Source: an uncultured Gammaproteobacteria bacterium (GTDB taxonomy: Bacteria > Pseudomonadota > Gammaproteobacteria > Steroidobacterales > Steroidobacteraceae). Taken from it: a stretch of DNA of 64,000 nucleotides. Of this stretch, positions 9,456-42,733 are shown piece by piece. The notes under the pieces were generated by a model, which did no database searches, had not been told where the DNA came from, and was given only the letters and a program-made list of their open reading frames with translations. Location of the stretch: positions 30,159 through 94,158 of the forward strand of contig CAVPOQ010000006.1 in the NCBI GenBank assembly GCA_963707145.1. Reading direction: 5' to 3'. Each line of letters opens with the position of its first letter. Position 1 is the stretch's first letter. The position numbers and the translations under genes were made by a program.

Positions 9456-9470
9456 GTCCGGCGGCCCCGG

Positions 9471-10154: not shown

Positions 10155-10157
10155 GGA

Positions 10158-10406
10158 TCAGCCGGCCTCGATGCGAGCGAGGACCTTGCCGCGTGGGAAA
10201 TTCTGCGTCGCAGCGACCTCGATCGACTCGACGACCCCGGCGGCTGGAGCCGTGACTTCGTGCGTTGCCTTCACCAGCACGACGTTCGCGATGATCTGGC
10301 CCATTTCGACCCGGTCACCCACCGCGACGAGCCACTCGTCGAGCAGCGCTTCGGTGCCCTCCTCGACGTCGGCCCACGGTTCATCCGGAAACGTAACGTC
10401 CACCAT
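10158..10406 (-). CDS. Stand-alone lipoyl-attachment domain protein (E2 N-terminal domain)
   Basis: 82 aa. LVKATHEVTAPAAGVVESIEV matches the E2 lipoyl-lysine hairpin pattern (xKAxxEVxAPxxGxV). GAGGAG lies 7 nt upstream of ATG 10406. Its TGA stop is in frame with the next ORF. Confidence 0.8.
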   Translation of the reverse strand: MVDVTFPDEPWADVEEGTEALLDEWLVAVGDRVEMGQIIANVVLVKATHEVTAPAAGVVESIEVAATQNFPRGKVLARIEAG

Positions 10407-10421
10407 AGTCTTGCTCCTCGG

Positions 10422-11456: not shown

Positions 11457-11480
11457 GGCGCTGTACCTGCAGTGCGTCGG

Positions 11481-13338: not shown

Positions 13339-13572
13339 GTGGCTCCCCCTGTTACCGCCCCGACTGCCATCGCCCGATTGGGGCCGGTTCGAAGGCGCCC
13401 GACGGGTTCTCGCGAGCGAGGACGACATGCGCCCTGCGCGATCCGCAGCCTTTGGACTCTAGGCTCGGGACCGGTGGCAGGGAATCCCGATCTCTTGGTA
13501 CCACCGATAAGCGCGCTAATCGGAGCAGCCGCGCCACGCCGTCGTCACTCGGCGGTCCGTCGCGGCGACCCC

Positions 13573-15417
13573 CTACGGGGAATACCAGATCGGCGAGCCG
13601 TAGACGCGTTCCTGGATGGTCGCGGGGCGTCCCGTGTCCTGCCACGGCTTGTCGAGCGCGATCGAGTCGAGCAGCGAATAGCGCGGCGTCGGGATTTCCA
13701 GCACGCGCGCGTAGTAGAACGCACGCTGCGCCGGGTCGAACTGCGGATCCCTCCACACCGCCTGCAGTTCGGCGGCTCCGATGTCGTTCGAATAGCGCCC
13801 GGTGGCGAGATCCACGGTGTTGCCCACGGGCGTCGCGCAGCGGCCGTCCGGCCCGATCGTCCGTCCATCGGACACCGCGACGTCGTAGATGCGCTCGCGC
13901 GTGGTGCCATCTGCCTCGAGCCAACCCTTCACCACCTGCACGCGATCGAGGTTGGCGCCGAGCGGATCCTTCATGGCGGCCACGAGGAACGCGGGGGCCT
14001 TGCGGCCGGCGCCCGCCCTGAGGTCGCCGCCCATGGGCACGCCCTTGCGGTAGCCGAGCGCCGCGAGATCCTTCGTCTTGAGGTCCGCCCTGTCGAATTC
14101 GAAGCCACCGAAGAATCGCAGCGTGATACGCGGCCCGGTCGACGCATAGACCTCCCTGCGCTTGAAGGCTTCGTAGATCGCCTGGCGGGTATTGTCCTTC
14201 GCCCATGCCGCGACATAGCCTGCCGCGCCCATGTCCCAGCCCTTGGCAGCACCCAGACCGCTTGGACCGCTGCGCGTGGCCGGGAAGGCATCGTGATAGC
14301 TCTTGCCCGCGAAGCCCGTCTCCTCCACCGCCGACATGCCGGTGTGGGAGTCGGAACTGCCGATCAGGCCGAACTTGTAGGGATTGACGCCGAGCTTCGC
14401 GTCCAGCGCCAGCCCGCGCCTGAGGCCCGCGCGGGCGTAGTCGGCGTCGGTGGGGTCCGGAGTCTTGCGATCGACGGTCATGACGAAGTTGTAGGTCTCG
14501 TAGCCTGCAAACTCGTCGGTCGGCGACAGCATCGGGTGAGTCTCCGAGTCGCCCTTGATCTGCGTGACCTCGAGCACCGGTTCCCACTCGGCGCGCGTCC
14601 TCGCGTAGGACGCGTCCAGCGGCTGGCCGTTCGCCCGGGCGAGCGGGAACATGCGACCGTCGCTCAGGTTGGCGTTGTGCGGGATCGAGAGGAACTGCGC
14701 GCCGGTGCGGCCGCTCACCTCGCCCAGCCAGCGCCAGAGCGCCTCGGGGTCCTGGCTCTCGAGCGCACTGAAGGGCAGGAACTGGCGCGCGACCTCGCCA
14801 CCCTGCGGCGTGAACACGACGCGGTGAATGTTTCCGCCGCCCGGCTGCGAACTCCACTCCCAGCCGATCAACGCCGTGAACACGCCCGGCTCGTTGTAGC
14901 GCTCCGCCGCATCGATGATCTCGTGCCACGTGCTGCGCCGCTTCTCACCGCCGTGCAGGTCTACGTAGGCCTGCTTCGGCGTGAGTCCATAGGCATTGGG
15001 CAGGCCGCTGCCGGCCGACGCGAGCAGGTCGTAAACCGCCTGCAGTTCCGATTCGCTCTTGCTGCCCCCGATACGGCGCAGCAGTTTGCCGGTGTCCGTG
15101 TCCGCGAACGCAGGGTCCCCGGCGAACAGTTTGGGCATCGCTCCAAGCACTTCCGCGTGATCGGCGACGACCAGGAAGTCGAGCGGACGGGATAACTGCC
15201 AGCGCGTCTGCGTCGTGGGACTCACGACCGGCAGGCCCCGGGCAAAGCGGTAGGCGGTGTCCGGTGTCGCGCTGAACGTGCCGAACAGGTAGACGTCGAA
15301 CGAGTAGCTCGTGTGCAGATGCGTGTCGCCCCAGTAGGGGCGCGTCTGTGCGCCGCTGGCCGGCGCAAGCACTGCTCCGAGACACGCGAGGCCTGAAACC
15401 ACGACTCGCAGCCTCAT
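13573..15417 (-). CDS. Exported DUF3604-family protein (PHP-like metal-dependent hydrolase fold), paralogue A
   Basis: 614 aa with a Sec signal peptide (..AVLAPASGAQT). Motifs WGDTHLHTSYSFD, RPLDFLVVADHAE, SIPHNANLSDGRMF, GSSDSHTG and a C-terminal YYARVLEIPTPR...GSPIWYSP. Strong GGAGGAG upstream. Confidence 0.8.
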   Translation of the reverse strand: MRLRVVVSGLACLGAVLAPASGAQTRPYWGDTHLHTSYSFDVYLFGTFSATPDTAYRFARGLPVVSPTTQTRWQLSRPLDFLVVADHAEVLGAMPKLFAGDPAFADTDTGKLLRRIGGSKSESELQAVYDLLASAGSGLPNAYGLTPKQAYVDLHGGEKRRSTWHEIIDAAERYNEPGVFTALIGWEWSSQPGGGNIHRVVFTPQGGEVARQFLPFSALESQDPEALWRWLGEVSGRTGAQFLSIPHNANLSDGRMFPLARANGQPLDASYARTRAEWEPVLEVTQIKGDSETHPMLSPTDEFAGYETYNFVMTVDRKTPDPTDADYARAGLRRGLALDAKLGVNPYKFGLIGSSDSHTGMSAVEETGFAGKSYHDAFPATRSGPSGLGAAKGWDMGAAGYVAAWAKDNTRQAIYEAFKRREVYASTGPRITLRFFGGFEFDRADLKTKDLAALGYRKGVPMGGDLRAGAGRKAPAFLVAAMKDPLGANLDRVQVVKGWLEADGTTRERIYDVAVSDGRTIGPDGRCATPVGNTVDLATGRYSNDIGAAELQAVWRDPQFDPAQRAFYYARVLEIPTPRYSLLDSIALDKPWQDTGRPATIQERVYGSPIWYSP

Positions 15418-15516
15418 GAATTCTCCTCCGAATGCGGCCGGTGGCGAACGCGACCGACCGCGCGTCGCGCCGTCACCGCCGCGGATCGCCCGTGCGGGTC
15501 TTGATTCCCTGCCGAC

Positions 15517-16023
15517 TCAGCGAGCGCTCGTCGGCACCGGGGCCGTGATGTAGGTCATCTGGTCGCAACACTGGTCCTTGATGCCCTGGTCGACCCACGC
15601 CTTGATCATCCCGGCGTCCATCAGCCCGAGGAACGTGCCGTCGGGCATGAAGTTGATGTTCGAGCCGGTCACGACCATGAACGTGTCGGTGTCCTCGGTG
15701 TTGCCCGCCGGCGTGTTGAACTGGTGGATCGAACCGCCCGGCTCGTACAGATAGTCACCCGCCTTCTGCACCTGGTCGGGATATTCCGTGTAGTACCACG
15801 CGCCGGACATCGTGTAGATGTGCACGGTGCCGGTGTGGAAGTGCAGCGGCAGTGTCACCCCTGGCGCGAACTTGACCCGCAACACCCACACGCCGTTGTG
15901 CGGATCGAGAAACAGCGGGTAGGCCTTGATGCCGGGATGCAGCAGGCCCTCGAGGAACTTGCCCACGTTCGTGTTGACCGTGAGCAGCTTGTCCTGCTTG
16001 GTGACGACTTCTGGCAATGACAT
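15517..16023 (-). CDS. Cupin protein of the 2,4'-dihydroxyacetophenone dioxygenase-like family
   Basis: 168 aa. LPLHFHTGTVHIYTMSGAWYYTEYPDQ..AGDYLYEPGGSIHQF is a cupin His motif resembling the DAD family from memory. GGGGGAG upstream. Confidence 0.7.
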   Translation of the reverse strand: MSLPEVVTKQDKLLTVNTNVGKFLEGLLHPGIKAYPLFLDPHNGVWVLRVKFAPGVTLPLHFHTGTVHIYTMSGAWYYTEYPDQVQKAGDYLYEPGGSIHQFNTPAGNTEDTDTFMVVTGSNINFMPDGTFLGLMDAGMIKAWVDQGIKDQCCDQMTYITAPVPTSAR

Positions 16024-16051
16024 TCGTACTCCCCCTTTGTTGAAGCGGCAA

Positions 16052-16213
16052 TCAGCGCAGCGGCTTGGTCACGGTCTTGCGGATTACCTTGTCCTTCTTG
16101 TCGTCCACCTTGTCCTCCATCTTGTCGACGGGACCCTTGTCGATCAGCTTGTCCGTCTGGTCCTTGACTTCGTTCTCGACCTTGTTGGTCACGACTTTGG
16201 TGCCAATGCCCAT
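16052..16213 (-). CDS. Unlisted 53-aa lysine/aspartate-rich hydrophilic mini-protein
   Basis: ATG 16213 to TGA 16052 gives MGIGTKVVTNKVENEVKDQTDKLIDKGPVDKMEDKVDDKKDKVIRKTVTKPLR. AGGAG lies 8 nt upstream. About 48 of 53 codons end in G/C. It is below the ORF-track length cut-off. Confidence 0.55.
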   Translation of the reverse strand: MGIGTKVVTNKVENEVKDQTDKLIDKGPVDKMEDKVDDKKDKVIRKTVTKPLR

Positions 16214-16372
16214 GTCTGCGCTCCTGTCTGCTGTGGTTGAGGGGTGTACCAGACCGGCGAGTTATCGGCGCGTTCCCGGATGCTCGCCGGCACGTCGGTG
16301 CGCAGGGTCGAAGCGCGCCGACTGACGACTCTGTTCACACCTGTGGCTTGCATCTCGGTACCTGCCGCCCCA

Positions 16373-18061
16373 TCACCGGGGCTTCTTGTCCTTCAGCTTT
16401 GCGTCCTTCGCGTCCTTTGCCTTCGCAGGCGCGCCGGCAGGCATGCTCTGCTTGCCGCGGTCGCTCGCTGCGCGATCGCCGCCGCCGCCCTTGGCTCCCG
16501 AGATTGCGCTCGATCTGGCACGTTCCGGTGCGCCGGACGGCACGGCCGCGGGCTTGCTCGCAGGTTTGCTCACCTTCGGTGCCGCAGGAGCGGCATCGCC
16601 GCGGTCCGACGCGGTGGAACGCGCGGCACTCGCCGACGGCTTGGCCTCGGGACGACTGACATTCGACGTCGCCGGCTTCGCAGCCGCCTTCGCCGTGGGC
16701 GCCGCGCTCGTCGCCTTGCTCTTGACGGCATCGCCGGTCGCCTGGCCGCCCGCGTAAGAGCCCTGCACCTTCGGCACGGCCCCTGCGGCACTGGTGGCCG
16801 CGCCCGGCCTGGCTTCCGGCACCTTGCTCTTGGCGGCCTGCGGAGCGCCCGCATAGGAACCCTGGCCCTTCCAGGCGTCTGCAGCCGGCGCAGGGCGCTT
16901 CGGCCCCTGCCTGGCCTGTGCATTCAACGAATCGAGCTCCGGCCGATTCGGCTTCGCTGCCGTGATCGGGCTGCTTGCCTTGCGGGACTGCCCGTCGCGC
17001 GTCGCACTGTTGTAGCCCGACCGGTTGTTGTCGTAGCGATCCCAGTACCCGCCGTTGTTGCCGCCCGGGTTGACCACGACGATGTTGCCGCTGTTGTTGA
17101 ATCCGCCGCCGTAGCCGGGTGGCCGGTTGTAGCCACTGCTCGGGTAATAGCCATTGCCGTATCGCGGGCGGTACGGATACGGGGGGTAATAGGGCATCGG
17201 CGGTCCGTAGTACCGCGGGTTGTAATAGCCCTTCTTGTACCAGTCGTCGTCGTCATCGTCGAAGATGTTGGCGACGAGCATGCCCGCGCCGAATGACAGC
17301 AGGCCCGTGGCGACCAGCGCTCCCGTACTGTGGCCCGTGTCTGCTGCGCCGGTTGTCGCGGTCGCGGCAGGAGCAGCGACCGCCGGCGCAGGAGCGTAAA
17401 CCGCCACGGGATCGTACTGCGGCACGTACACCACCTCCGGGCTCGGTGGCGACACCGTGATGACCTGGTGGCCCTCCTGGATCTCGGTCGCAACCTTCAT
17501 CTGCTCGGAACTCTTCAGGTTGCCGACGTCCCTGGCCTGAGTCCGCAGGCGCTGCACCGCGTCGAGCGCCCCCGCCTGGTCATTGACGTAGGCCTGGCCG
17601 AGCTCGGTCGTCCAGCCCATCTCAAGGCACATCATGTCGATGACTTCCGGCGACTGCAGCAGCCCGCGCACCGGCGGCGTAAAGCCGACCTGCTTCGCGG
17701 CCTCGTCGAGCGCGTTGCCCGCGAGGCTCGGGTTCTGCAGCAGCCAGTTGCCCGCGTCGAGCACTTCCTGCGGATTCGTCGCTGCGACCAGCACCTCGCC
17801 GAGTATCACGTCCGGGTACAGCGCGACGGGCGCCAGCAGCTCTTCCATCGCTTCTGGAGTCCAGGTCGCCGTGCTGGCCTGCAGCGGTTGCGGAGGCTGT
17901 GCGGCGGCCTGCTGAGCAGCGTCGGGGGGCGTCTGCACCGTTACGACAGGCGGCGTGGCAGGCGTCGCAGGAGGTGTCTCCTTGCTGCCACATCCCGACA
18001 GGGCGATTGCCACGCCGATCGCGAGCGCGAGGCCTTGCCTGGGCGGCGATTTGTATTCCAA
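16373..18061 (-). CDS. DUF3300-family lipoprotein with a long low-complexity C-terminal half
   Basis: LAPVALYPDVILGEVLVAATNPQEVLDAGNWL is the DUF3300 signature as I recall it. Lipobox IALSGC. I prefer the TTG start at 18061 (AGGAG 6 nt upstream) over the track's GTG at 18082. The C-terminal ~300 aa are Y/P/G/N-rich, then A/K/P/S-rich. Confidence 0.75.
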   Translation of the reverse strand: MEYKSPPRQGLALAIGVAIALSGCGSKETPPATPATPPVVTVQTPPDAAQQAAAQPPQPLQASTATWTPEAMEELLAPVALYPDVILGEVLVAATNPQEVLDAGNWLLQNPSLAGNALDEAAKQVGFTPPVRGLLQSPEVIDMMCLEMGWTTELGQAYVNDQAGALDAVQRLRTQARDVGNLKSSEQMKVATEIQEGHQVITVSPPSPEVVYVPQYDPVAVYAPAPAVAAPAATATTGAADTGHSTGALVATGLLSFGAGMLVANIFDDDDDDWYKKGYYNPRYYGPPMPYYPPYPYRPRYGNGYYPSSGYNRPPGYGGGFNNSGNIVVVNPGGNNGGYWDRYDNNRSGYNSATRDGQSRKASSPITAAKPNRPELDSLNAQARQGPKRPAPAADAWKGQGSYAGAPQAAKSKVPEARPGAATSAAGAVPKVQGSYAGGQATGDAVKSKATSAAPTAKAAAKPATSNVSRPEAKPSASAARSTASDRGDAAPAAPKVSKPASKPAAVPSGAPERARSSAISGAKGGGGDRAASDRGKQSMPAGAPAKAKDAKDAKLKDKKPR

Positions 18062-18149
18062 GCGTATCTCCTGTCCATTCACCGATGCGGGACGGCGCGG
18101 CCTACTTCACCGCTGACTAACCGTTGTTGTCATCCTTCTTATCGTCCGT

Positions 18150-18431
18150 TTAGTCCTTCTTGTCGTCCTTATCCTTCTTGTCGTTCTTGTCGTTCTTGTC
18201 GTTCTTGTCGTGCTTGTCCTTGTCGCCGATGTTGGCGGCGTCCTTGGCCGTGTCGTGCATGGCCTCCTTCGGGTCGCAGCGTCCACCGACGCCGACGGTT
18301 GCCTTCGCTGCGGCACTCTTCGCGGCCTTCTCAGCCGTGCAGTCCGGATCGAGCGGACCCGCGCTGACCGCCGTCACTGCCAGCGCCATCGCCAGACCCA
18401 GTCCCAGTCGCGACTTGAGTGAATTCATCAT
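18150..18431 (-). CDS. Small secreted two-Cys protein with poly-K/D tail (copy B)
   Basis: Start at ATG 18431 (MMNSLKSRLGLGLAMALAVTAVSA) with GGAG 9 nt upstream. Mature core is GPLDPDCTAEKAAKSAAAKATVGVGGRCDPKEA. Tail is DKDKHDKNDKNDKNDKKDKDDKKD. It lies 69 nt downstream of DUF3604-B. Confidence 0.7.
   Translation of the reverse strand: MMNSLKSRLGLGLAMALAVTAVSAGPLDPDCTAEKAAKSAAAKATVGVGGRCDPKEAMHDTAKDAANIGDKDKHDKNDKNDKNDKKDKDDKKD
18177..18221. repeat. 9-bp tandem repeat (cttgtcgtt, 3 perfect + 2 imperfect units) inside the K/D tail coding region
   Basis: Read directly: cttgtcgtt cttgtcgtt cttgtcgtt cttgtcgtg cttgtcctt. It encodes (N/H)DK units in frame on the minus strand. Confidence 0.8.
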
Positions 18432-18500
18432 GACTACTCTCCAGTTGGTCGATTGTTCAATACGGCCGCGCAGCAATTCGCTGCGATACGGCATCATGCG

Positions 18501-20417
18501 TTACGGCGTGTACCAGATCGGACTCGTCCATGCGCGCTCCTGGACCGCCGAAGGCACGTCGGGCAGCAGCGGCAGCTTGTTCCTGACGGCGTCGTAGGTC
18601 GTCCACCGCGGCGTCGGTATCTCGAGCACGCGGACGTAGTACAGCGCGTTCCTCGAGGGATCGAAGTCGGGGTCGGTCCACGTGCCCATCAGCTCCGGGC
18701 TGCCGATCGTGTTGGCGTACGTCGCCTTCGTCAGGTCGACCGTATTTCCAACGGGCGGGACCTTGCCGTCGCCACCGCGCTTGCGATCGCCGCTCCAGAC
18801 CACGTCGATCACCTTGTCCTGCGGCTCGCCCTTGGCGTCGACCATGCCCTTGATGATCTGGATGCGGTCGAGGTTGGCACCGTTGGGGTCCTTTGATGCC
18901 CAGACGGTAAACGTCGGCGCCTTGGATACCTTCTCGATCGTGCCGCCCATCGGCACGCCATTGCGATAGCCCTGCTCCACGAGCTCCCGCGGGTTCGTCG
19001 ATGCGGCGCCGAGGTCCGCGCCACCGAAGAACCGCACCTTGATGCGCGTGCCGGAGGTGACGAACGTTTCGCGCGCGGCCATCGCGTCCCAGATCGCGCC
19101 GCGCGTGTTGCGTGTCGCCCAGACGGCGGCCAGCGAGCCTGGATTCGATTCCTTCGACTTGATCCAGCCGTCGATCTCGCCATCGCGCCGCGCCTCGAGC
19201 GTGCCGTCCGCTGGGCCATGGCTGCCGATGTAGTCGTCCTCGGCGACGTCCGAGGGCAGGCCGTTGTGATTGTCGGTGCCGCCGATGAAACCGAGCTGGT
19301 AGGGATTCGCACCCAGCGTCTGCTGGTAATAGAGGCCCTTGGTCACGGCCCAGCGCACGAAGTTCTCCTTCTTGAACGTGCGGCCGCTGAACGTGCCGAC
19401 GCTGTCGGCGTTCTCGAAATTCGCAAACTCGTCGGCCGGCCAGAAGCTCCGGTGAACCTCCGAGTTGCCCTTGATCTGCATCATCTCGATCAGCCGCTCG
19501 AAGTGGCTGCGCAGGCGCGCGTAGTCCGCCGTGATCGGCTTGCCGGCATTGTCGAGCGGCTCGAACATCAGGCCCTTGCTGCCGTTGGAATTGTGCGGAA
19601 TCGCCAGCAGCCGCGAGCCCTTCTTCTCCTGCTCGGCCATCCAGGCCCAGAGCTTTTCCTCGTCGTTGCTGTCCAGCGCCGAGAACGGCACGTCCGGGAC
19701 GTTCAGGTCACGGAAGATGACGTTGCGATGCATGTTCCCGGCGTTCTGGGCGGACGTCCACTCGAAGCCGGCGAGTGTCGTGAACTTGCCGGGCCGGTAG
19801 TTGTCGATCGCGGCCTTGATCTGGACGTCCTTCCATGCGCTGCGCGTCGTCTCGGGACCGGCGTAGAACGGCGGGTGGTCCGGGTGTTCGCCGCGCATGT
19901 TGTTGATAACGTACTTCATGAACCAGGCACGCTGCTCGTCCACGGTCTTGAGCCCGCGCAGTTCCTCGAGCATCGGGTTGTCGCCGCCCTTGGCGCCCGG
20001 GACCTGCGTCGAGTACATCTCGCCGATGAACTCGGCGTGGTCGGAGACGGCCACCCAGTCGAGCGGACGGCCGATGTTGTGCTTCTGGCCGTTCACGACG
20101 ACGTCGGCGCCCTGCGCGAACTTGTAGGCCTCGTCCGGCGTGATCCGGGCGCCGCCGATGTAGGCATCGAGGGAGAACGACGTGTGCACGTGCGTCTCGC
20201 CGAAGTAGGCGTCCTTCAGCGGGTTCTCCGCAACAGCGGCCTCGAGATCCGCGACCGTCGGCGCCGGGGCGGATGCTGGCGCGGCCGCCGGCACGGCAGC
20301 GACAGGTTGGTCGCTGCTCCGTTGACAACCCGCCAGTGCGAACACGACTGCGAACGCGATCAGCGCAATCTGCGCGCTGCGCACTCGGGATAGGGTCTGC
20401 GTGTGCATTACATTCAT
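18501..20417 (-). CDS. DUF3604-family lipoprotein (PHP-like hydrolase fold), paralogue B
   Basis: Start placed at ATG 20417 (MNVMHTQTLSRVRSAQIALIAFAVVFALAGCQ, lipobox LAGC), GGAGG 10 nt upstream. Motifs FGETHVHTSFSLD, RPLDWVAVSDHAE, AIPHNSNGSKGLMF, GGTDNHNG and YYVRVLEIPTPRW..TSPIWYTP. Confidence 0.8.
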   Translation of the reverse strand: MNVMHTQTLSRVRSAQIALIAFAVVFALAGCQRSSDQPVAAVPAAAPASAPAPTVADLEAAVAENPLKDAYFGETHVHTSFSLDAYIGGARITPDEAYKFAQGADVVVNGQKHNIGRPLDWVAVSDHAEFIGEMYSTQVPGAKGGDNPMLEELRGLKTVDEQRAWFMKYVINNMRGEHPDHPPFYAGPETTRSAWKDVQIKAAIDNYRPGKFTTLAGFEWTSAQNAGNMHRNVIFRDLNVPDVPFSALDSNDEEKLWAWMAEQEKKGSRLLAIPHNSNGSKGLMFEPLDNAGKPITADYARLRSHFERLIEMMQIKGNSEVHRSFWPADEFANFENADSVGTFSGRTFKKENFVRWAVTKGLYYQQTLGANPYQLGFIGGTDNHNGLPSDVAEDDYIGSHGPADGTLEARRDGEIDGWIKSKESNPGSLAAVWATRNTRGAIWDAMAARETFVTSGTRIKVRFFGGADLGAASTNPRELVEQGYRNGVPMGGTIEKVSKAPTFTVWASKDPNGANLDRIQIIKGMVDAKGEPQDKVIDVVWSGDRKRGGDGKVPPVGNTVDLTKATYANTIGSPELMGTWTDPDFDPSRNALYYVRVLEIPTPRWTTYDAVRNKLPLLPDVPSAVQERAWTSPIWYTP

Positions 20418-20483
20418 TGTGATCAAGCCTCCATCTGTATGACTGCGGTCACCGGCCCGCCGCCAGCACGTGGCCGAGCTCCT

Positions 20484-21308
20484 TCATCTCGTCGCCGGTA
20501 CCAGCAGGGCCACGCCTGCCCGCAGGACCCATTCCTGATTGCCAGGATCGTCCTTGAAGTCGTAACCGACCTCGACATTCGGGCGCCATTTCTGTTCCGC
20601 CCAACCGATCACGAAGCCGTAGTTGACGCTGAGCAGAAGGGATGACCACCGGGAATGTTCCGTGTCGTAGACGAGGGCGCTGTTGCCCACCGAAAGCGAG
20701 CGTCCCTTGCCAAGCTGATAGCTCAACACGGGCTGCAGGTTGATGATCCCGACGTCCGGTGCGTCGTCATCGCCGGCGTACGAAAAGAACGTCTGGGCGA
20801 ACAGGCCCCAATTGACCTTCTTGGCCGACGAGTTGACGAAGCCCAGTGCCGGCCCTGCGGTCCACTTGTCGAGCGTCAAGCCATCGGCGCCGGTTGGCAG
20901 CGTGCCGGAAACGCCGATGCCGAAACGTCCCCAGTTACGATCGAACGTCACCAGATCGAACACGGTGAAATCCGCGAAGCCGTCGGCTCCGCTCGGCGAG
21001 GAGGTCACATAGGGCGCGGTCAGCCGGAAGATGTGGTGCGTGCCTGCCAGCTCGAACGGCAGCGCCGCGCGGAAGACGACCTGATTCGCCGAACCGCCGA
21101 TGCCGTGAAAACTCGGCGTGTACCAGTCGTTCAGCTGGAAGGACATCAGCGCGGCGGTGGGGTCGGTCGCCTGCGCCGCAAGTTCCTCGCTGTCGCTCGC
21201 CTCCTGCGCACGCGCCGCCGGGCTGCCGCCCGCAATCATGGCGGTGGCGGCCAGCGCCACACACTGCGCAGGCAGCGTGTCCCGGACGGACGATTCCCGC
21301 TTGTTCAT
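20484..21308 (-). CDS. Probable outer-membrane beta-barrel protein
   Basis: Start at ATG 21308 (MNKRESS..VALAATAMIAGGSPAARAQ signal). Alternating-hydrophobic beta-strand pattern and aromatic-rich strands (SVNYGFVIGW, VEVGYDF, LRAGVALLVP). Exact start uncertain because there is no clear SD. Confidence 0.6.
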   Translation of the reverse strand: MNKRESSVRDTLPAQCVALAATAMIAGGSPAARAQEASDSEELAAQATDPTAALMSFQLNDWYTPSFHGIGGSANQVVFRAALPFELAGTHHIFRLTAPYVTSSPSGADGFADFTVFDLVTFDRNWGRFGIGVSGTLPTGADGLTLDKWTAGPALGFVNSSAKKVNWGLFAQTFFSYAGDDDAPDVGIINLQPVLSYQLGKGRSLSVGNSALVYDTEHSRWSSLLLSVNYGFVIGWAEQKWRPNVEVGYDFKDDPGNQEWVLRAGVALLVPATR

Positions 21309-21356
21309 TACGCTGGGGAACTCTGCACGCACGCTGATCGGGACTCAGTCGCTGGA

Positions 21357-21647
21357 TCAAGCCTTGTTATCGTCCTTGTCATCCTTGTCTTTATCCATGT
21401 CCTTGTCCTTGCCGTCGCGCCGCTCCTCGACCGGTCCCTTGTCTTCGATGTTGACCACGTCCTTGGCCGTGTCCGATAGGGCTTCCTTCGGGTCACAGCG
21501 GCCGCCCACGCCGACCGTGGCCTTTACCGCGGCACTCTTGGCGGCCTTCTCGGGAGTACAGTCCGGGTCGAGCGGGCCCGCGCTTGCGATGGCCGCGGTT
21601 GCGGCAAGCAGCGCGCCGGTGATCCAGTGCCATGACGTTGGTTTCAT
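21357..21647 (-). CDS. Small secreted two-Cys protein with poly-K/D tail (copy C)
   Basis: ATG 21647 with GGAGG upstream and signal MKPTSWHWITGALLAATAAIASA. Core is GPLDPDCTPEKAAKSAAVKATVGVGGRCDPKEA. Tail is IEDKGPVEERRDGKDKDMDKDKDDKDDNKA. It lies 27 nt downstream of DUF3604-C. Confidence 0.7.
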   Translation of the reverse strand: MKPTSWHWITGALLAATAAIASAGPLDPDCTPEKAAKSAAVKATVGVGGRCDPKEALSDTAKDVVNIEDKGPVEERRDGKDKDMDKDKDDKDDNKA

Positions 21648-21674
21648 GATCGAGTCCTCCAGTTCAAGTGATTT

Positions 21675-23660
21675 TCACTTGCCCGGCGTGTACCAGATCG
21701 GCGAGGTCCAGCCGCGCTCCTGCTGCATCATCGGCACCTCGGGCGACATCTTGATGCCGAAGCGCACCTGGTCGTAGGCGGTCCAGCGCGGCGTCGGGAT
21801 CTCGATCACGCGTGCGTAATAGAACGCGCGCAACGACGGATCGAAGTCCGGGTCTTGCCACATTCCCGCGAGTTCAGGATCGCCGATCGTGTCCGTCCAC
21901 GTCGCGGTCGCGACGTCGACGGTATTGCCAACCGGCGGCAGCTTGCCGTCCTTGCCGGGCTTGCGACGGTCGGCGTCGCCCCAGGCCACCTCATAGATGC
22001 GCTCGTGTGCCTTGCCGTCCTTGCCGAGCCAGCCCTTCACGATCTGGATGCGGTCGAGATTGCCGAACATCGGGTCCTTGCGCGCCGCCACGAGGAACGT
22101 CGGCGCCTTGCCCGCCGGCGCCTTCGTGAGATCGCCGCCCATCGGCACGCCCTTCGCGTAGCCGACGTCCGCAAGGCTGCGGCTGCGGGCGTCGGCGGGC
22201 TGGTAGTCCCAGCCGCCGAAGAAGCGCACCGTCATCCGTGTGCCGGAGGTGCCATAGACCTCCTTGCGCTGCATCGCGTCCCACAGCGCTTCGCGCGTAT
22301 TCGCCGTCGCCCACACGGCGGCATAGCCGGCCCCGAGGTAGTGCCATGTGTAGCGCGTCTTGCCGAAACCCTGCTTCGAGACGTGCTCCCAGCGGGTCGG
22401 GCTCGGCTCCTGGTAGGGCATCTTGCCGTAGAAATTGTCTTCCTCGATCGCCGTGAGCGAGTTGTGCACGTCGGTGCTGCCGACGAACCCGAACTTGAAC
22501 GGATTCACGCCGAGCTTTGCTTCCTGCTCCATGCCGCGCAGCAGGCCTGCGCGCAGGTAGTTGGTCGGCATCATCTCGCGCGACAGCGGCTTGTCGGTGA
22601 GCGTCAGGTTGCCGTACTCCCAGCCGGCGATGCCCATGTCACCCGCAAACTCATCGTTGGGCGAGATGCCTGGGTGCGTCTCGCTGTTGCCCTTGGTCTG
22701 GACGATTTCCTGCAGCACTTCCCAGCGCGCGCGCCGTTCGGCGTAGTCGCGCGTGAGCGGCTGGCCGGAGAAGTCGGTCAGCTCGAACATGCGTCCGTTC
22801 GAGAGATTGCCGTTGTGCGGGATGGCGAGCATCCGGCCGCCGGTCTTCTTCTCGTAGGCATCCATCCACGCCCAGAGCTTCTCGGGGTCCTCGCTCTGCC
22901 AGGCGGAGAACGGGAAGACCTGGTCGGCCTTGTCCTTGCCGTCGCGGAACAGCACGTTGCGGTGCAGGTTGTTGCCGCCCGGCACCGAGGTCCACTCGTA
23001 ACCGATCATCGCGGTGAAGCGGCCGGGCTCGTTGTACTTCTCCGCGGTTGCCGTGTACTCCTGCCAGACGGACTTCATGATCGGTCCGACGACCTTCGGG
23101 TCCTTGATCGGGGCAGGCAACGTGCCCATCGCCTGGGCCTTGGTCACTTCGGTCTGCGTCGCGGCCGCTTCGTCACCGCCGGCCTTCATCCCCTTGCTCC
23201 ACTGCGCCAAGGTCGGGTCGGAGACGAACGCCGGATTGCCCTTGTAGACCTCCTGCATCAGGCCGAGACCTTCCGCATGGTCCGAGACGACGAGAAAATC
23301 GAGCGGACGCGACAGCTTCACCGGCACGCCCGTCGACGAAATGACTTCCTCACCGCGGGCGAAACGGTACGAGTCCTCGGGCGTCAGGCGATCGCCCGCC
23401 GCGAAGCCGTCGCCCGAATTCGAGGTGTGGTGGTGCGTGTCCCCCCAGTACACCTGGGTCGGATACTTGCGATTGGCGTACGGCGAGTAGTTCCGGGTCG
23501 CCACCGACAACTCCGCTTTGGCCGTGGGCGCGGGCGCTGCTTCGTAATCGTCGATCAGCTTCTGCGCCAGCACGGGACCGGCGCTCGCAGCCAGCACAAA
23601 CGCGACTGCCGCCGCAATCGCCGCCCCATGGTGGATGCGAGACATGTTGCGCTGGTTCAT
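21675..23660 (-). CDS. Exported DUF3604-family protein (PHP-like hydrolase fold), paralogue C
   Basis: Start placed at ATG 23660 (MNQRNMSRIHHGAAIAAAVAFVLAASAGPVLA), GAGGAG 6 nt upstream. Motifs WGDTHHHTSNSGD, RPLDFLVVSDHAE, AIPHNGNLSNGRMF, GSTDVHNS and YYARVIEIPTPRW..TSPIWYTPGK. Confidence 0.8.
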   Translation of the reverse strand: MNQRNMSRIHHGAAIAAAVAFVLAASAGPVLAQKLIDDYEAAPAPTAKAELSVATRNYSPYANRKYPTQVYWGDTHHHTSNSGDGFAAGDRLTPEDSYRFARGEEVISSTGVPVKLSRPLDFLVVSDHAEGLGLMQEVYKGNPAFVSDPTLAQWSKGMKAGGDEAAATQTEVTKAQAMGTLPAPIKDPKVVGPIMKSVWQEYTATAEKYNEPGRFTAMIGYEWTSVPGGNNLHRNVLFRDGKDKADQVFPFSAWQSEDPEKLWAWMDAYEKKTGGRMLAIPHNGNLSNGRMFELTDFSGQPLTRDYAERRARWEVLQEIVQTKGNSETHPGISPNDEFAGDMGIAGWEYGNLTLTDKPLSREMMPTNYLRAGLLRGMEQEAKLGVNPFKFGFVGSTDVHNSLTAIEEDNFYGKMPYQEPSPTRWEHVSKQGFGKTRYTWHYLGAGYAAVWATANTREALWDAMQRKEVYGTSGTRMTVRFFGGWDYQPADARSRSLADVGYAKGVPMGGDLTKAPAGKAPTFLVAARKDPMFGNLDRIQIVKGWLGKDGKAHERIYEVAWGDADRRKPGKDGKLPPVGNTVDVATATWTDTIGDPELAGMWQDPDFDPSLRAFYYARVIEIPTPRWTAYDQVRFGIKMSPEVPMMQQERGWTSPIWYTPGK

Positions 23661-23773
23661 CGTCATCTCCTCGCGAGTCAAATGCAGAGTTCGAATGTCC
23701 ATGCGTGCACATCGGGCATCGATGCCGACCAATCACCCTCTGGCCGCGCCTGGTGCTTCCGAGGTCAGGGCCT

Positions 23774-24868
23774 CTACTGCGCCGATTCGGCCTCGGTCCA
23801 GTCCTCGCTCGTGTTGCGGGGCGGCTTGATGCGGAGCGGCACCGACACAGTGAGAAACACGCCGTCGCCCTCGAGACGATTCTCGGCGCCGAACTCGTGA
23901 TACCAGCGCAGGTCGACCCCGACCGGGTGCACCTTGCCGGGGAACTGGTAGGCGATCTCGGGTCCGACGCCGAAGACCCGACCCTTGAAATCGCCGAGGA
24001 TGGCCGGGCCGTTGCTGTCGGCGGTCAACTGCTGGAACCAGTAGCCCACGATCCCGAACGCCCAGTTGTTCGGCAGGTGCTGACGCCCGGATATCTCCAG
24101 GTGGAAGTCCGTGCCGCTGCTGTAGTCGGTGTCCTGGTTGTCGCCGTTGAAAGTAAATCCCAGTACCGACGAGAACTCACGGCCGCCCTTGAAGTTGGCC
24201 ATCGTGTAGGCGGCGCCGACGTCGAGCGCCCAGCGGTTGCTGCTCAGGTTGGCGAGCCGCCCGAGTTCGTAGGAACCGATCGGGATCCACACCGACGAGT
24301 ACACGCTCCAGGCCCGGAACTTGTCGCCCTCACGATGCTTCCAGCCGACCGAGCCGCCCACGACCGGATCTGCGAATCCGCTGTCCGAATCGGAGAGGTT
24401 GACGGTAGGGCTGGTGCCGCCGTTCGGCAACTCCACCGCGCCTTTGCCGTCCACGTCGACTTTGCCGAACGGCGTGAGCAGGCTGAACGCCAGTCGCCCG
24501 CCAGCAACCGTGACATCGGTAACCCAGGTGAATTGCGGAATATCCATCAGGGCCTGCGCAGACACGTCCTGGACGAGGCGGTCGCCGCCGAACGGCAGCA
24601 GGTCGCTGCTGCTGGCGTCGTAGTAATACACGTCGTTCGTGAGATAGATGCCCGGCTTCGGCACGAACGCGGCGAGCGGGCCACGCTTGCCGAGCAGGTA
24701 GACGCTCTTGCCACCGTCATCGGCCTGCGCAACCGGCGCGAGCACGATGCTGAGACCGACGACTCCCGCCGCCAGGGCCTCGATGCCAGCCGGTCGACGG
24801 GACGGTCGTCGCTTCCTTCCGGGATGCGTTACGGCCGGAGGCCAGACTGGCTTATCTGCATGGTCCAT
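23774..24868 (-). CDS. Outer-membrane channel of the MetA-pathway/phenol-degradation-like 'transporter' family
   Basis: Start at ATG 24868 and signal ..LSIVLAPVAQA. The C-terminal LRWYHEFGAENRLEGDGVFLTVSVPL and overall beta-strand pattern resemble that OM family from memory. Confidence 0.65.
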   Translation of the reverse strand: MDHADKPVWPPAVTHPGRKRRPSRRPAGIEALAAGVVGLSIVLAPVAQADDGGKSVYLLGKRGPLAAFVPKPGIYLTNDVYYYDASSSDLLPFGGDRLVQDVSAQALMDIPQFTWVTDVTVAGGRLAFSLLTPFGKVDVDGKGAVELPNGGTSPTVNLSDSDSGFADPVVGGSVGWKHREGDKFRAWSVYSSVWIPIGSYELGRLANLSSNRWALDVGAAYTMANFKGGREFSSVLGFTFNGDNQDTDYSSGTDFHLEISGRQHLPNNWAFGIVGYWFQQLTADSNGPAILGDFKGRVFGVGPEIAYQFPGKVHPVGVDLRWYHEFGAENRLEGDGVFLTVSVPLRIKPPRNTSEDWTEAESAQ

Positions 24869-25040
24869 GGCAGGAATCCCCCCAAGCCTCCGATGCGGTG
24901 CGGCTGACAGGCCGACGAACTCCCGCGCCGAGGCAGGCGCGTTCCTCGGCACCGACCGCCACGGCGTGATCGCCAGGGCGGCCAGAGTCCGGCAACTCTA
25001 TGAACCCACGGCGGCTGCTGGAATACCGAAGATCAACGAA

Positions 25041-25064
25041 CGGTGATAACTTGGGTTATCACCG
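25041..25064. promoter_or_regulatory. Perfect 10-4-10 palindrome (cggtgataac ttgg gttatcaccg): candidate LysR-type operator
   Basis: Read directly. It lies in the 214-bp divergent intergenic region, 19 nt upstream of the lysR-family GTG start. The core TGATAAC-N4-GTTATCA is a dyad of the kind LTTRs bind. Confidence 0.4.
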
Positions 25065-25082
25065 CGCCGTCGAGGGGGCCAA

Positions 25083-25976
25083 GTGAACATCCGCGATTTC
25101 CTGGACGTCAGGGTGATCTGCGAGGCAGGCAGCCTGCGCAAGGCGGCTGCGTTGCTCGGGGTCACGCAGCCCACGCTCGGCAACCGGGTCTCGCACCTCG
25201 AGGACCAGCTCGGAGCACAGCTGTTCGACCGCAGCCGCGGCCAGTCGCAACCGACGGAACTCGCACTGTTCATCGCCCGGAGGGTGGCCACGATGGCCTG
25301 CGAGGCCGGGCGACTCGCGGAGGAAGCGAAGCGGCTTGCGTCGGGCAAGGGCGGGCTGGTGAGGATCGGGGTCTCGCCAGTGCCGTCGCGCATCATGTTC
25401 CCCGACATCATCATCGGCATCTCCGACCAGTTTCCGAGCATCAGTCTCGACGTGCTCTCCGCCCCCACGATCCAGCTCGCCGACGGTCTGCTGCGGCGCG
25501 AGCTGGACCTGATCGTCTGCCCGGCCCTGGACGGGGATCATCCCGTGGTCGCCTCCGAACTGCTGCTGGAAACCGACATCATCGTCGTCGCGCGTCCCGA
25601 CCATCCGTTGTGCGCCGATCCCCCCGCCACGATTCCCGGCCTGTTCAAGTTCCCGATCGCGTTGCCGGTCACCGAAAAGCACTACCTGGACGCGATCAAG
25701 CGTGAGTACGGCATCGATATCGAGAACCTTCCGGGCCGGATCCTGTGCTCCGATCCGAGCATGCTCGCCCGCATCGTCCAGAAGAGCGCACGGGTATTCA
25801 CGGCCGCGCCGCGGTTCTATTTCTCGCCCGAACTCGACGCCGGGCTGCTGCGCATCGTCGACACGCCGGTGCCCCTGGGGCATTCGCTGTACCTGCACTG
25901 GAACCGGGACGCCTACCCGCTGCCAGCCGTCGAGCGCACCAAGGAAGCGATTCGAACGGCGTTCGCCGCGCGCTGA
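25083..25976 (+). CDS. LysR-family transcriptional regulator
   Basis: GTG start. The N-terminal wHTH (GSLRKAAALLGVTQPTLGNRVSHLEDQLGAQLFDR) is typical of LTTRs. 297 aa. Divergent from the OM-channel gene. Confidence 0.9.
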   Translation: MNIRDFLDVRVICEAGSLRKAAALLGVTQPTLGNRVSHLEDQLGAQLFDRSRGQSQPTELALFIARRVATMACEAGRLAEEAKRLASGKGGLVRIGVSPVPSRIMFPDIIIGISDQFPSISLDVLSAPTIQLADGLLRRELDLIVCPALDGDHPVVASELLLETDIIVVARPDHPLCADPPATIPGLFKFPIALPVTEKHYLDAIKREYGIDIENLPGRILCSDPSMLARIVQKSARVFTAAPRFYFSPELDAGLLRIVDTPVPLGHSLYLHWNRDAYPLPAVERTKEAIRTAFAAR

Positions 25977-34603: not shown

Positions 34604-34607
34604 GGTC

Positions 34608-36122: not shown

Positions 36123-36125
36123 GGG

Positions 36126-38079
<1,954 letters not shown>

Positions 38080-38082
38080 GGC

Positions 38083-38987: not shown

Positions 38988-39000
38988 CGTGGCTGCCTGC

Positions 39001-39480: not shown

Positions 39481-39487
39481 GGCGACC

Positions 39488-42729: not shown

Positions 42730-42733
42730 GCCG

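Follow-up and report, generated by a model that had tools for sequence, protein, structure and literature searches.

A conserved island of DUF3604 genes with a candidate PHP-like metal site and a divergent LysR regulator

Loci for the use of sulfate esters, such as ats and sft of Pseudomonas, combine type I (formylglycine) sulfatases with LysR-type control. HupE/UreJ permeases occur in hydrogenase and urease accessory gene clusters, and the PHP enzyme YcdX of E. coli has a chaperone, YcdY. The nearest described relatives by fold of the proteins reported here are the PHP-like phosphoesterase 3E38 and its sequence relatives, among them Sb-PDE and No-PDE, phosphodiesterases that bind three zinc ions and are exported by the Sec route (PMC5460133, PMC11656708). 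PMC11656708 lists nine PHP ligands: H61, H63, D68, H93, E135, H142, H203, D260 and H262. For DUF3604 proteins, a literature search found no substrate or activity for any member, the sole mention being a gene-list entry, Chlamydia CT_425. The island described below offers a testable handle on this very large uncharacterised enzyme family.

Gene content of the island

The window, by which we mean the whole 64-kb stretch of DNA analyzed, contains the following features.

25083..25976, plus strand: LysR-type regulator, divergent from the cluster (HTH_1 54 bits, LysR_substrate 87.5 bits)
25041..25064: candidate LysR operator, CGGTGATAAC-TTGG-GTTATCACCG, a perfect 10-nt inverted repeat with an N4 spacer
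23774..24868, minus strand: MetA-type outer-membrane (OM) channel (Phenol_MetA_deg), first gene of the cluster (PF13557, 207.9 bits, E 3.3e-61)
21675..23660, minus strand: DUF3604 paralogue 3, Sec-exported, N-terminus ...AASAGPVLA/QK (PF12228, 789 bits)
21357..21647, minus strand: mini-protein 2, 96 aa, with signal peptide, DPDCT...GVGGRCDPKE core and K/D-rich tail
20484..21308, minus strand: exported 274-aa protein, probable small OM barrel, a distant MetA relative by hhalign
18501..20417, minus strand: DUF3604 paralogue 2, lipoprotein with lipobox LAGC and Gln at +2 (PF12228, 701 bits)
18150..18431, minus strand: mini-protein 1, 93 aa, with a tail of DK(N/D) repeats; paralogous to mini-protein 2
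16373..18082, minus strand: DUF3300 lipoprotein, lipobox LSGC (PF11737, 155.7 bits)
~16240..16320, minus strand: 3'-end relic of a fourth DUF3604 gene (…DVPASIRERADNSPVWYTP; DNA repeats D13 and D14)
16052..16213, minus strand: mini-protein 3, 53 aa, K/D-rich, apparently a derived copy without signal peptide or Cys
15517..16023, minus strand: cytoplasmic Cupin_7 protein, partner of paralogue 1 (PF12973, 61.7 bits)
13573..15417, minus strand: DUF3604 paralogue 1, Sec-exported, the copy used for modelling (PF12228, 761 bits)
12538..13428, minus strand: short-chain dehydrogenase (SDR), directly downstream after a 144-nt gap (adh_short, 128.5 bits)

An earlier, sequence-only reading of this DNA had described three large exported paralogues interleaved with envelope proteins on one strand, with intergenic gaps of 27-159 nt, and the coordinates bear this out. 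All three paralogues match PF12228 end to end in a Pfam profile search, far above the cutoff of 20.4 bits, and they are 41-49% identical in pairs. The His/Asp motifs listed in that reading (WGDTHxHTSxSxD, RPLD..V[SA]DHAE, IPHNxNxSxGxMF and G[SG][ST]DxH) are all present, as is the common C-terminus, YY[AV]RV[LI]EIPTPR...SPIWY[TS]P. DUF3604 was the only family found in Pfam and NCBIfam profile searches, in which no characterised family passed threshold. Membership of the CehA/McbA family (NCBIfam NF038032) was rejected because the score was 18.1 bits against a cutoff of 80, with the first motif (the HxH region) alone covered.

Export signals, called by reading N-termini and by a lipobox pattern search, agree with the two Sec signals and one lipobox originally proposed. 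N-termini of the Sec type mark paralogues 1 and 3 and their relatives, and the LAGC lipobox of paralogue 2 is kept in most of its orthologues; paralogue 3 has more than 8000 relatives, the nearest 72-90% identical. This retention of localisation signals within each orthologue group supports the suggestion that the three copies may be specialised.

Two OM beta-barrels had also been predicted. The MetA-type channel is borne out by its profile match; its product has a signal-peptide-like N-terminus and a weak sequence match to the solved barrel 4rl8. The 274-aa protein has no Pfam match. The profile of its homologues aligns to the MetA profile (hhalign probability 78%, E 1.8e-5, over 99 columns that include the GfGD motif), and it is therefore likely, not proven, to be an OM barrel distantly related to MetA. 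The DUF3300 lipoprotein is as first described, and its C-terminal half is of low complexity, Pro/Tyr/Gly-rich and basic.

Two of the three proposed mini-proteins are clear. Mini-proteins 1 and 2 each have a signal peptide, a pair of invariant Cys and a tail rich in K and D; they are 58% identical over the alignment and 73% over the first 70 residues, and their genes form a DNA repeat, D6, that is 82% identical. Mini-protein 2 matches nothing in Pfam or NCBIfam, and its family numbers 148 representatives at the 50% identity level in a set of 1.84 billion proteins. The Cys-pair mini-protein is a new tiny disulfide protein. Mini-protein 3 aligns to the core and tail of the family, its MGIG start matching the family VGVG, and it looks like a derived copy. 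Its gene has a coding-like GC3 of 0.89 and a GGAG ribosome-binding site; the protein was not found in the protein collection, and a similar MGIG-type gene follows two DUF3604 genes in locus L001.

An addition to the features listed earlier is the relic of a fourth DUF3604 gene. It matches the C-terminus of paralogue 2 (tblastn, 52% identity over 27 aa, E 1e-5), and the ORF that encloses it looks non-coding because its GC3 is 0.67.

Predicted fold and candidate metal site of DUF3604

The AlphaFold2 model of paralogue 1 is of high confidence (pLDDT 91.4, pTM 0.91). Its sole significant fold match in the PDB was 3e38_B (E 3.3e-6, probability 1.0), a moderate match with a TM of 0.46 on the target. 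At the sequence level, the Pfam PHP model did not match the three DUF3604 proteins, and no similarity of these proteins to solved structures was found. We paired DUF3604 residues with the PHP ligands by sequence order, invariance and predicted strand position. The counterparts, in the same order, are H33, H35, D41, H87, E187, H198, H247, D356 and H358; all nine are invariant in 62 DUF3604 sequences and sit at or just past predicted strand ends in the model. Many residues besides these are also invariant. The PHP resemblance noticed from the motifs is thus matched in the model, which supports a PHP-like fold; the candidate metal ligands form a full set, invariant and in order.

Conservation of the neighbourhood and candidate operator

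The cluster is real and conserved. Related loci in genomes and metagenomes contain the set of LysR, MetA, DUF3604, mini-protein and second DUF3604. Among 85 mini-protein loci, 52 contain DUF3604, which directly precedes the mini-protein in 34 and directly follows it in 27; the gene for the 274-aa protein recurs beside the mini-protein in 17. Related islands (L003, L045, L122 and L169) also contain DUF3300, mostly accompanied by DUF2950. The neighbours named in the sequence-only reading (barrels, DUF3300 and mini-proteins) do therefore co-occur with DUF3604 elsewhere. In species-level genome loci, each of these partners appears in 2 to 3 of 80, and the recurrence of mini-protein, barrel and LysR operator with DUF3604 is confined to one narrow lineage. 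The distribution of DUF3604 itself is patchy and island-like, with one to four tandem copies.

The divergent regulator is a generic LysR, with no specific NCBIfam equivalog above cutoff; a homologue, 61% identical, adjoins the related island in L045. The perfect palindrome noted beside it lies 19 nt upstream of its start and is conserved. Its core, GATAAC-N4-GTTATC, has a single match in the window, where 0.02 would be expected by chance, and exactly the same core stands in the same place beside LysR in L124, L125 and L126. Reading of flanking sequence revealed a degenerate core, GATAAG-N4-TCTATC, with a downstream TATTCC box in L045 and L094, and L084/L085 and L102 have the same degenerate core in the equivalent place. 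We identified neither a Pho-type nor a sulfur-starvation regulator.

DUF3604 is not the only partner of the mini-protein and MetA module, which also pairs with formylglycine sulfatases. Exported sulfatases with the CSPTR motif stand immediately downstream of the mini-protein in nine loci, the place that DUF3604 takes in 27. They adjoin DUF3604 in L087, L122 and L135 and lie near the MetA barrel in related metagenomic islands. In L008, a genome of the Bacteroidota, four tandem DUF3604 genes are bordered by sulfatases. The 64-kb window itself contains no sulfatase.

A proposed regulated envelope system and its alternatives

At roughly even odds (about 0.5), we favor a regulated envelope system that imports and hydrolyses a substrate, most likely an anionic ester, under LysR control. 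The substrate would pass the outer membrane through two dedicated small barrels, the MetA-type channel and its 274-aa distant relative, and would be hydrolysed by three specialised DUF3604 enzymes, of which one is lipid-anchored and the other two are soluble in the periplasm. DUF3604 would be a divergent hydrolase of the PHP superfamily, with three metals in its active site, and the chemistry most likely the hydrolysis of a phosphodiester or phosphomonoester, possibly of a sulfate ester. The Cys-pair mini-proteins would serve as lineage-specific periplasmic accessories of the channel-plus-hydrolase module. The divergent LysR would bind the conserved palindrome and control the cluster. The evidence supports overall the envelope-located hydrolysis and uptake first proposed. 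Gene content, homology, export signals, fold, the invariant ligand set and the conservation of neighbourhoods and operator are shown by the data, and the inferred elements are hydrolytic activity, ester class, direction of transport, regulation with inducibility, and the part played by the mini-proteins.

The released alcohol or carbonyl product would probably be handled by the conserved cytoplasmic cupin and nearby oxidoreductases. Cupin_7 copies near paralogue-1 orthologues are 89-91% identical in L102 and L169, and 60% identical in the cultured Parahaliea maris (L172). The nearest solved structure is 3cjx, a protein whose function is not known. In P. maris the orthologous cupin, a paralogue-1-type DUF3604, a TonB-dependent receptor, SDR genes and an AraC regulator stand together, a layout typical of nutrient uptake. 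The SDR in the window is possibly a member of the cluster unit; in P. maris SDR genes flank the cupin and DUF3604, yet they are only 26-28% identical to it.

Alternatively, DUF3604 might work in the periplasm with a HupE/UreJ-type permease, as a partner that depends on metal or releases it, and serve not nutrient catabolism but the uptake or trafficking of Ni, Co, Zn or a similar metal, the ion that its three metal sites would bind or free from a chelate for import by the permease. We regard this as unlikely, although the commonest partners of DUF3604 found across phyla point to metal handling: a PPIase-like protein in 29 and a HupE/UreJ_2 permease in 26 of 80 species-level loci. A membrane-anchored Rotamase_2 (PPIase-like) gene and then HupE_UreJ_2 directly follow DUF3604, with gaps typically below ~60 nt, in Proteobacteria, Bacteroidota, Planctomycetota, Myxococcota, Verrucomicrobiota and Nitrospirota. 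In the permease a His-rich HxxxGxDH-type motif is kept, as is a His at the mature N-terminus, and the pair also occurs in close relatives of the island (L045, L084, L125 and L169). However, no such pair was found in the 64-kb window (tblastn, E <= 1e-4), and the divergent paralogues in each locus, the linked sulfatases, TonB receptors and dehydrogenases, and the invariant non-ligand residues look like those of substrate-diversified enzymes. A simpler view is that the pair supplies metal to the DUF3604 enzyme or aids its maturation.

It is rather improbable that the substrates are neutral, that is, carboxyl or carbamate esters, lactones or amides of an aromatic or ketone compound, hydrolysed by CehA/McbA-like chemistry that feeds the adjacent cupin, SDR and acetoin-dehydrogenase-like genes. 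The weak HxH-region match to the CehA/McbA metallohydrolase model is consistent with such chemistry, as are the conserved cupin and SDR and, downstream on the same strand, genes for an E1/E2 dehydrogenase complex (acetoin-dehydrogenase-like), a glyoxalase-type dioxygenase and lactonase-like proteins. That match falls well short of its cutoff, however, and the cupin resembles 2,4'-dihydroxyacetophenone dioxygenase only remotely (E 2e-6). Co-residence with sulfatases suggests anionic esters, and phosphoesters are the substrates of most characterised PHP enzymes, including all those in PMC11656708 and PMC5460133.

We give slightly less credence still to envelope maintenance or stress, in which the hydrolases would remodel part of the cell's own envelope, such as phosphorylated lipid or LPS head groups, rather than degrade an external nutrient, assisted by lipoprotein, LolA-like and small periplasmic proteins. 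Paralogue 2 is a lipoprotein, and related loci contain DUF3300, DUF2950, DUF2541, LolA-like DUF2092 and aquaporin Z; DUF3300 is among CpxR-related E. coli genes (PMC9600279). Genes for a PLD-type phosphodiesterase, an inositol-monophosphatase-like protein and an FGGY kinase lie in the L169 context. Chlamydia, with its reduced genome, has kept DUF3604, which fits a catabolic role poorly. On the other hand, the patchy distribution in islands of variable copy number argues against housekeeping of this kind, and linkage to LysR/AraC regulators, a TonB receptor, sulfatases and catabolic dehydrogenases fits nutrient use better.

Finally, chance juxtaposition of unrelated neighbours with no joint function is highly improbable: sequence scans for promoters and terminators found no evidence defining an operon and gene order varies between related loci, but the neighbourhood census already contradicts it, with the same gene set on many independent contigs, the mini-protein directly flanked by DUF3604 in most, a conserved operator, and all cluster genes on one strand with short gaps.

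Among known systems, sulfate-ester loci resemble the island in combining an exported ester hydrolase, outer-membrane uptake and a LysR-family regulator. They differ in that the window has no sulfatase, and neither a sulfur-starvation regulator nor a sulfate-ester transporter was found; the DUF3604 fold is also unrelated to the alkaline-phosphatase fold of sulfatases. The CehA/McbA carbaryl hydrolases share a metallohydrolase domain with an HxH-type first motif, a weak local match to a family of which DUF3604 is not a member. The association of DUF3604 with HupE/UreJ_2 and a chaperone-like PPIase across phyla follows the pattern seen when an enzyme has its own factors for metal supply or maturation; it differs from YcdX/YcdY in its accessory proteins, which are not related to YcdY, in the periplasmic location of the enzyme and in the absence of the pair from the window. 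Sb-PDE, No-PDE and 3E38 (BVU_3505) have no detectable sequence similarity to DUF3604, which belongs to PF12228 and not PF02811, exceeds Sb-PDE (441 residues) by ~170-220 residues and has large insertions. DUF3604 is accompanied by OM barrels and mini-proteins and, elsewhere, by PPIase-like proteins and HupE, whereas no such partners of Sb-PDE were found reported. [quoted passage not shown]

Layout and setting of the cluster

The sequence-only reading had described a one-strand cluster with three DUF3604 paralogues, opposite a divergent LysR gene with a perfect palindrome, and this arrangement is confirmed. The paralogues share all the motifs it had quoted and are 41-49% identical, and gaps of 27-159 nt separate the cluster genes.

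Genes of the cluster in transcription order, with the facing LysR-family gene last
23774-24868, minus strand: MetA-type outer-membrane protein, first in transcription order (PF13557, 207.9 bits against a cutoff of 22)
21675-23660, minus strand: DUF3604 paralogue 3 (PF12228, 789 bits)
21357-21647, minus strand: mini-protein 2, between paralogue 3 and the 274-aa gene
20484-21308, minus strand: exported protein of 274 aa, no Pfam match
18501-20417, minus strand: DUF3604 paralogue 2 (PF12228, 701 bits), lipobox LAGC
18150-18431, minus strand: mini-protein 1, between paralogue 2 and the DUF3300 gene
16373-18082, minus strand: DUF3300 lipoprotein (PF11737, 155.7 bits against a cutoff of 25), lipobox LSGC
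16052-16213, minus strand: mini-protein 3, between the DUF3300 and Cupin_7 genes
15517-16023, minus strand: Cupin_7 protein, directly upstream of paralogue 1 in transcription order
13573-15417, minus strand: DUF3604 paralogue 1, last in transcription order (PF12228, 761 bits)
25083-25976, plus strand: LysR-family gene facing the cluster (HTH_1, 54 bits; LysR substrate-binding domain, 87.5 bits)

The export signals also held up: paralogue 2 has its lipobox, LAGC, and paralogues 1 and 3 have Sec-type signals, as judged by reading their N termini. All three of the proposed mini-protein genes were found, but the third lacks a signal peptide and both cysteines and looks like a derived copy. It was not found in the protein collection; its GC3 of 0.89 and GGAG ribosome-binding site suggest that it may still be expressed. 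Between the DUF3300 gene and mini-protein 3, at ~16240-16320 on the minus strand, DNA repeats and tblastn (E 1e-5) revealed the relic of a fourth DUF3604 gene, consisting of its last ~27 codons (…DVPASIRERADNSPVWYTP) within an ORF whose GC3 of 0.67 is non-coding-like. The island has lost one DUF3604 copy.

Pairwise BLASTP between the 274-aa protein and the MetA barrel was not significant. Profile-profile comparison of 274-aa protein homologues with MetA barrels by hhalign gave a probability of 78% (E 1.8e-5) over 99 columns that include the GfGD motif, and this alignment supports the view that the 274-aa protein is probably a small outer-membrane barrel.

The palindrome, CGGTGATAAC-TTGG-GTTATCACCG, lies at 25041-25064 in the divergent region between the LysR gene and the cluster; it occurs once in the window, where chance would give 0.02 matches. 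Its core, GATAAC-N4-GTTATC, is equally placed beside the LysR start in three related loci (L124, L125 and L126). A degenerate form, GATAAG-N4-TCTATC, is found next to LysR in L045, L084/L085 and L094; in L102 it separates the cupin gene from the MetA gene. A TATTCC box ~20 nt beyond the palindrome is likewise conserved in the intergenic sequences that were inspected, those of the window, L045, L094 and L124/L125. This phylogenetic footprint across related loci supports a real LysR operator at this candidate site; its spacing, ATAAC-N4-GTTAT, is unlike the textbook T-N11-A box. Consensus scans found no excess of promoter- or terminator-like sites over shuffled sequence.

The G+C content of the window is 64-72%, with no compositional break at the cluster. 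The flanks contain a complete-looking nuo gene set for respiratory complex I (33158-47449), ftsH (51114-53180) and dnaK (61321-63291), so the cluster sits in the core chromosome. Recent horizontal acquisition was considered and rejected, because nothing in the base composition stands out and the flanking genes are core ones. Close homologues come from MAGs labelled Steroidobacteraceae and 'Burkholderiaceae'. Just past the LysR gene, a minus-strand gene (26491-27927) encodes a secreted protein of 478 aa that has a DUF642 domain at its N terminus and Ig-like (ASH/HYDIN-type) domains at its C terminus.

The DUF3604 proteins and their candidate metal site

All three paralogues exceed the PF12228 gathering score of 20.4 (761, 701 and 789 bits for paralogues 1, 2 and 3) and cover profile positions 2 or 3 to 591 of 591. 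PF12228 is the only model above its cutoff, and no characterised family in the NCBIfam search claims the DUF3604 proteins, in keeping with the earlier view that the family has no assigned function. The PHP-domain model PF02811 matched none of the three at E ≤ 0.01. The CehA/McbA metallohydrolase family (NF038032) was rejected, as it matches the first motif of paralogue 1 only, at 18.1 bits against a cutoff of 80.

The proposed resemblance to PHP-type metal hydrolases was supported by structure prediction and a fold search. Paralogue 1 was modelled with AlphaFold2 from an alignment of 62 sequences, and the model is confident (pLDDT 91.4, pTM 0.91). The fold search supports a distorted barrel of the PHP type: the sole Foldseek match in the PDB at E ≤ 0.001 was 3e38_B (E 3.3e-6, probability 1.0, TM 0.46 normalised on the target), annotated as a 'two-domain protein containing predicted PHP-like metal-dependent phosphoesterase'; the C-terminal domain of the model gave weak matches to immunoglobulin-like beta-sandwiches. 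The only characterised enzymes of the 3E38 group are Sb-PDE and No-PDE, and their metal ligands, numbered as in No-PDE, are H61, H63, D68, H93, E135, H142, H203, D260 and H262 (PMC5460133, PMC11656708). Paralogue 1 has nine counterparts in the same order, H33, H35, D41, H87, E187, H198, H247, D356 and H358, all invariant in the 62 sequences. These candidate ligands, assigned by order, motif and predicted strand ends, follow the PHP order HxH, D, H, E, H, H, DxH; in the model they are found at the ends of predicted strands or immediately beyond them. Together with the 3e38_B match, they support a PHP-like reading at the level of fold and motif.

Membership of the Sb-PDE/No-PDE/3E38 group at the level of sequence was rejected. 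The network that delimits the group asks for an identity of at least ~30% with either Sb-PDE or 3E38 (PMC11656708), and neither phmmer with a single protein nor the 62-sequence profile found 3E38, any PHP protein or any sequence relative among PDB sequences.

DUF3604 homologues form at least 8000 sequence clusters at E ≤ 1e-10, with genome matches in Gamma- and Alphaproteobacteria, Bacteroidota, Myxococcota, Desulfobacterota, Planctomycetota, Gemmatimonadota, Verrucomicrobiota and Nitrospirota; Chlamydia trachomatis CT_425 is likewise annotated as DUF3604, and the family extends to bacteria of soil and sea. We found almost no literature on the family, and a full-text search turned up no functional study. 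Each window paralogue has its own orthologues at 70-90% identity, with the lipobox kept in those of paralogue 2 and Sec signals in those of paralogues 1 and 3, implying that the triplication is old and that the differences in localisation have been maintained.

Conserved partners in related loci

The surroundings of DUF3604 were compared in 80 loci, with each species represented by a single genome and 10 kb taken on each side. Most often DUF3604 is accompanied by a gene for a membrane-anchored Rotamase_2 (PPIase-like) protein and, after it, one for a HupE_UreJ_2 permease; they occur across phyla (L004-L083) in 29 and 26 of the 80 species-level loci, respectively, and the pair usually begins within ~60 nt of the DUF3604 stop codon. 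We found no description in the literature of the resulting three-gene unit, DUF3604-Rotamase_2-HupE_UreJ_2 (examples are L004 10001-13788, L058 1339-4934 and L059 8979-12623). A metal-handling role for the window system, which ranks first among the alternatives but which we consider unlikely, is tied to this HupE/PPIase partnership. In related islands the pair is usually downstream of a lipoprotein-type DUF3604 gene; the 64-kb window has neither a Rotamase_2 nor a HupE gene.

Of the 80 loci, no more than 2 to 3 contain any one of the genes for the mini-protein, MetA barrel, 274-aa protein and DUF3300; six have a sulfatase gene within 10 kb of DUF3604. In Marinigracilibium pacificum (Bacteroidota; L008 1837-17705), two sulfatase genes flank four tandem DUF3604 genes, and the second is followed by genes for a 282-aa protein without a Pfam match, Rotamase_2, HupE and an Omp85-like protein.

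Neither Pfam nor NCBIfam has a model for the mini-protein family, which is small: it comprises 623 clusters at 90% identity, and a set of 1.84 billion proteins contains 148 representatives of it at 50% identity. The first 40 residues of the mature protein are almost invariant (AGPLDPDCTxEKAAKSAAxKATVGVGGRCDPKE), including two invariant cysteines. An AlphaFold2 model from 23 homologues, with two short helices and a disordered tail, is not interpretable (pLDDT 51, pTM 0.17).

Because many contigs are under 3 kb, partner counts in the 85 mini-protein loci are lower bounds: DUF3604 in 52, the MetA barrel in 23, the 274-aa protein in 17, sulfatase in 15, Rotamase_2 in 13, DUF2541 in 10, HupE in nine, aquaporin Z and an SBF-family transporter in six each, and a LolA-like DUF2092 with a low-complexity 168-aa protein in 7-8. 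The immediate neighbour of the mini-protein is DUF3604 upstream in 34 loci and downstream in 27, or a sulfatase upstream in five and downstream in nine. The predicted co-occurrence of DUF3604 with mini-protein, outer-membrane and DUF3300 genes is therefore real, but it is lineage-restricted, and the scaffold is also common to sulfatases. DUF3604 enzymes and true sulfatases occupy one modular island of channels and small periplasmic proteins.

In L087 10468-15301, L122 2169-4532 and L135 2130-8072, exported formylglycine sulfatases stand in the place of DUF3604 beside the mini-protein and MetA barrel; the two L087 enzymes that we inspected are ~790 aa long, with signal peptides and the formylglycine motif CSPTR. 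Sometimes DUF3604 and a sulfatase are both present in one island. The 168-aa protein, exported and without family assignment, has (N-V-N-x) and (D-V) repeats (L087 7157-7663), and always follows the LolA-like DUF2092 gene in sulfatase/DUF3604 islands. No sulfatase gene was found in the window by tblastn with four sulfatase queries. A type I sulfatase utilisation locus was accordingly rejected: formylglycine (C/S-x-P-x-R) sulfatases occur in related islands only.

The mini-protein/DUF3604 islands decay and rearrange repeatedly. In L001 (14245-14382), a 45-aa ORF after a signal-less 'MGIG' mini-protein is a C-terminal remnant of the 274-aa barrel-like protein (…FAVNPQYNL…LLVPAS). In L085 (6941-9973), the MetA barrel and the next DUF3604 are called as one fused 1010-aa ORF and the downstream DUF3604 is in fragments, probably owing to frameshifts or assembly errors.

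Flanking metabolism and proposed function

The cupin recurs with paralogue 1. The window cupin is 91% identical to a copy directly upstream of a paralogue-1 orthologue in L169, and 89% identical to one near a paralogue-1-type DUF3604 in L102. The cultured Parahaliea maris (L172 3123-11768) has the order AraC / SDR - Cupin_7 - TonB-dependent receptor - SDR - DUF3604 - DUF3604, its cupin being 60% identical to that of the window and its first DUF3604 65% identical to paralogue 1. The closest solved structure to the window cupin is 3cjx, a cupin of unknown function. The JGI/IMG label on relatives, '2,4'-dihydroxyacetophenone dioxygenase', was not supported, as the similarity is remote (E 2e-6) and 3cjx is closer.

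The island flanks vary yet repeatedly encode oxidation of alcohols, diols or hydroxy-carbonyls. They include an SDR, an acetoin-dehydrogenase-like E1/E2 set, a glyoxalase-type dioxygenase and an SMP-30 lactonase-like protein in the window; a PQQ alcohol dehydrogenase, an aldehyde dehydrogenase and hydroxy-acid dehydrogenases in L102; and PQQ-ADH, Fe-ADH, an FGGY kinase, an inositol-monophosphatase-like gene and a PLD-type phosphodiesterase in L169. This recurrence is soft evidence that hydrolysis might yield an alcohol or polyol that is then oxidised. The acetoin or 2-oxoacid-dehydrogenase-like set of the window (9471-12521 and 8739-9470, minus strand, downstream of the SDR and on the same strand as the cluster) encodes E1 alpha, E1 beta, a free-standing 82-aa lipoyl-domain protein and a separate 227-aa E2 catalytic domain (a split E2), with a lipoate-protein ligase-like gene.

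Overall, we favour, with a probability of about 0.5, a LysR-controlled envelope system in which a substrate would be imported through dedicated small barrels and cleaved by three specialised DUF3604 hydrolases of the PHP three-metal type. The LysR protein would govern its induction, the mini-proteins would also have a part, and the chemistry would most probably be hydrolysis of anionic phospho- or sulfo-esters. The data show which genes are present, their homology and export signals, the fold, a conserved set of candidate ligands, and the conservation of neighbourhoods and of the candidate operator; enzyme activity, the class of ester, the direction of transport, induction and what the mini-proteins do are inferred. 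The cupin and dehydrogenase genes could instead be fed by hydrolysis of a neutral ester, carbamate or lactone, which ranks second among the alternatives and to which we give little weight. Endogenous envelope remodelling by these exported proteins, third in order, seems improbable. Chance juxtaposition of genes that share conserved neighbourhoods is hardly credible.

Beyond this proposed LysR-controlled ester-hydrolysing system, a wider joint reading, unlikely as a whole, would make DUF3604 a new and widespread class of periplasmic three-metal ester hydrolases, such as a PHP-fold sulfatase or organophosphate diesterase for ester mineralisation in soil, wetland and sea. Their maturation would require a dedicated chaperone, PPIase-like, and a metal permease of the HupE type. 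The uncatalogued Cys-pair mini-protein, common to DUF3604 enzymes and formylglycine sulfatases, would serve MetA-type channels as an obligate partner, be it adaptor, plug or chaperone.

These data provide testable leads on a very large family: a candidate PHP-type three-metal site, envelope export, dedicated outer-membrane channels, interchangeability with true sulfatases, a cross-phylum partnership with a metal permease and chaperone, and a conserved candidate regulator site. Parahaliea maris, a cultured organism with an orthologous module, is tractable for experiments. If the substrates are indeed organic phosphate or sulfate esters, these enzymes may represent an overlooked route of P or S mineralisation in wetlands, sediments and the sea.

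DUF3604 itself is a catalogued domain, and systems that combine a channel with a periplasmic hydrolase and a regulator are familiar in outline. We found no earlier description of the modular island, of the mini-protein family, of its interchange between DUF3604 and sulfatases, or of the cross-phylum DUF3604-PPIase-HupE unit. In its proposed workings the window system resembles both the exported PHP phosphodiesterases Sb-PDE and No-PDE and the sulfatase-based ester-utilisation loci, but by sequence criteria it belongs to neither.
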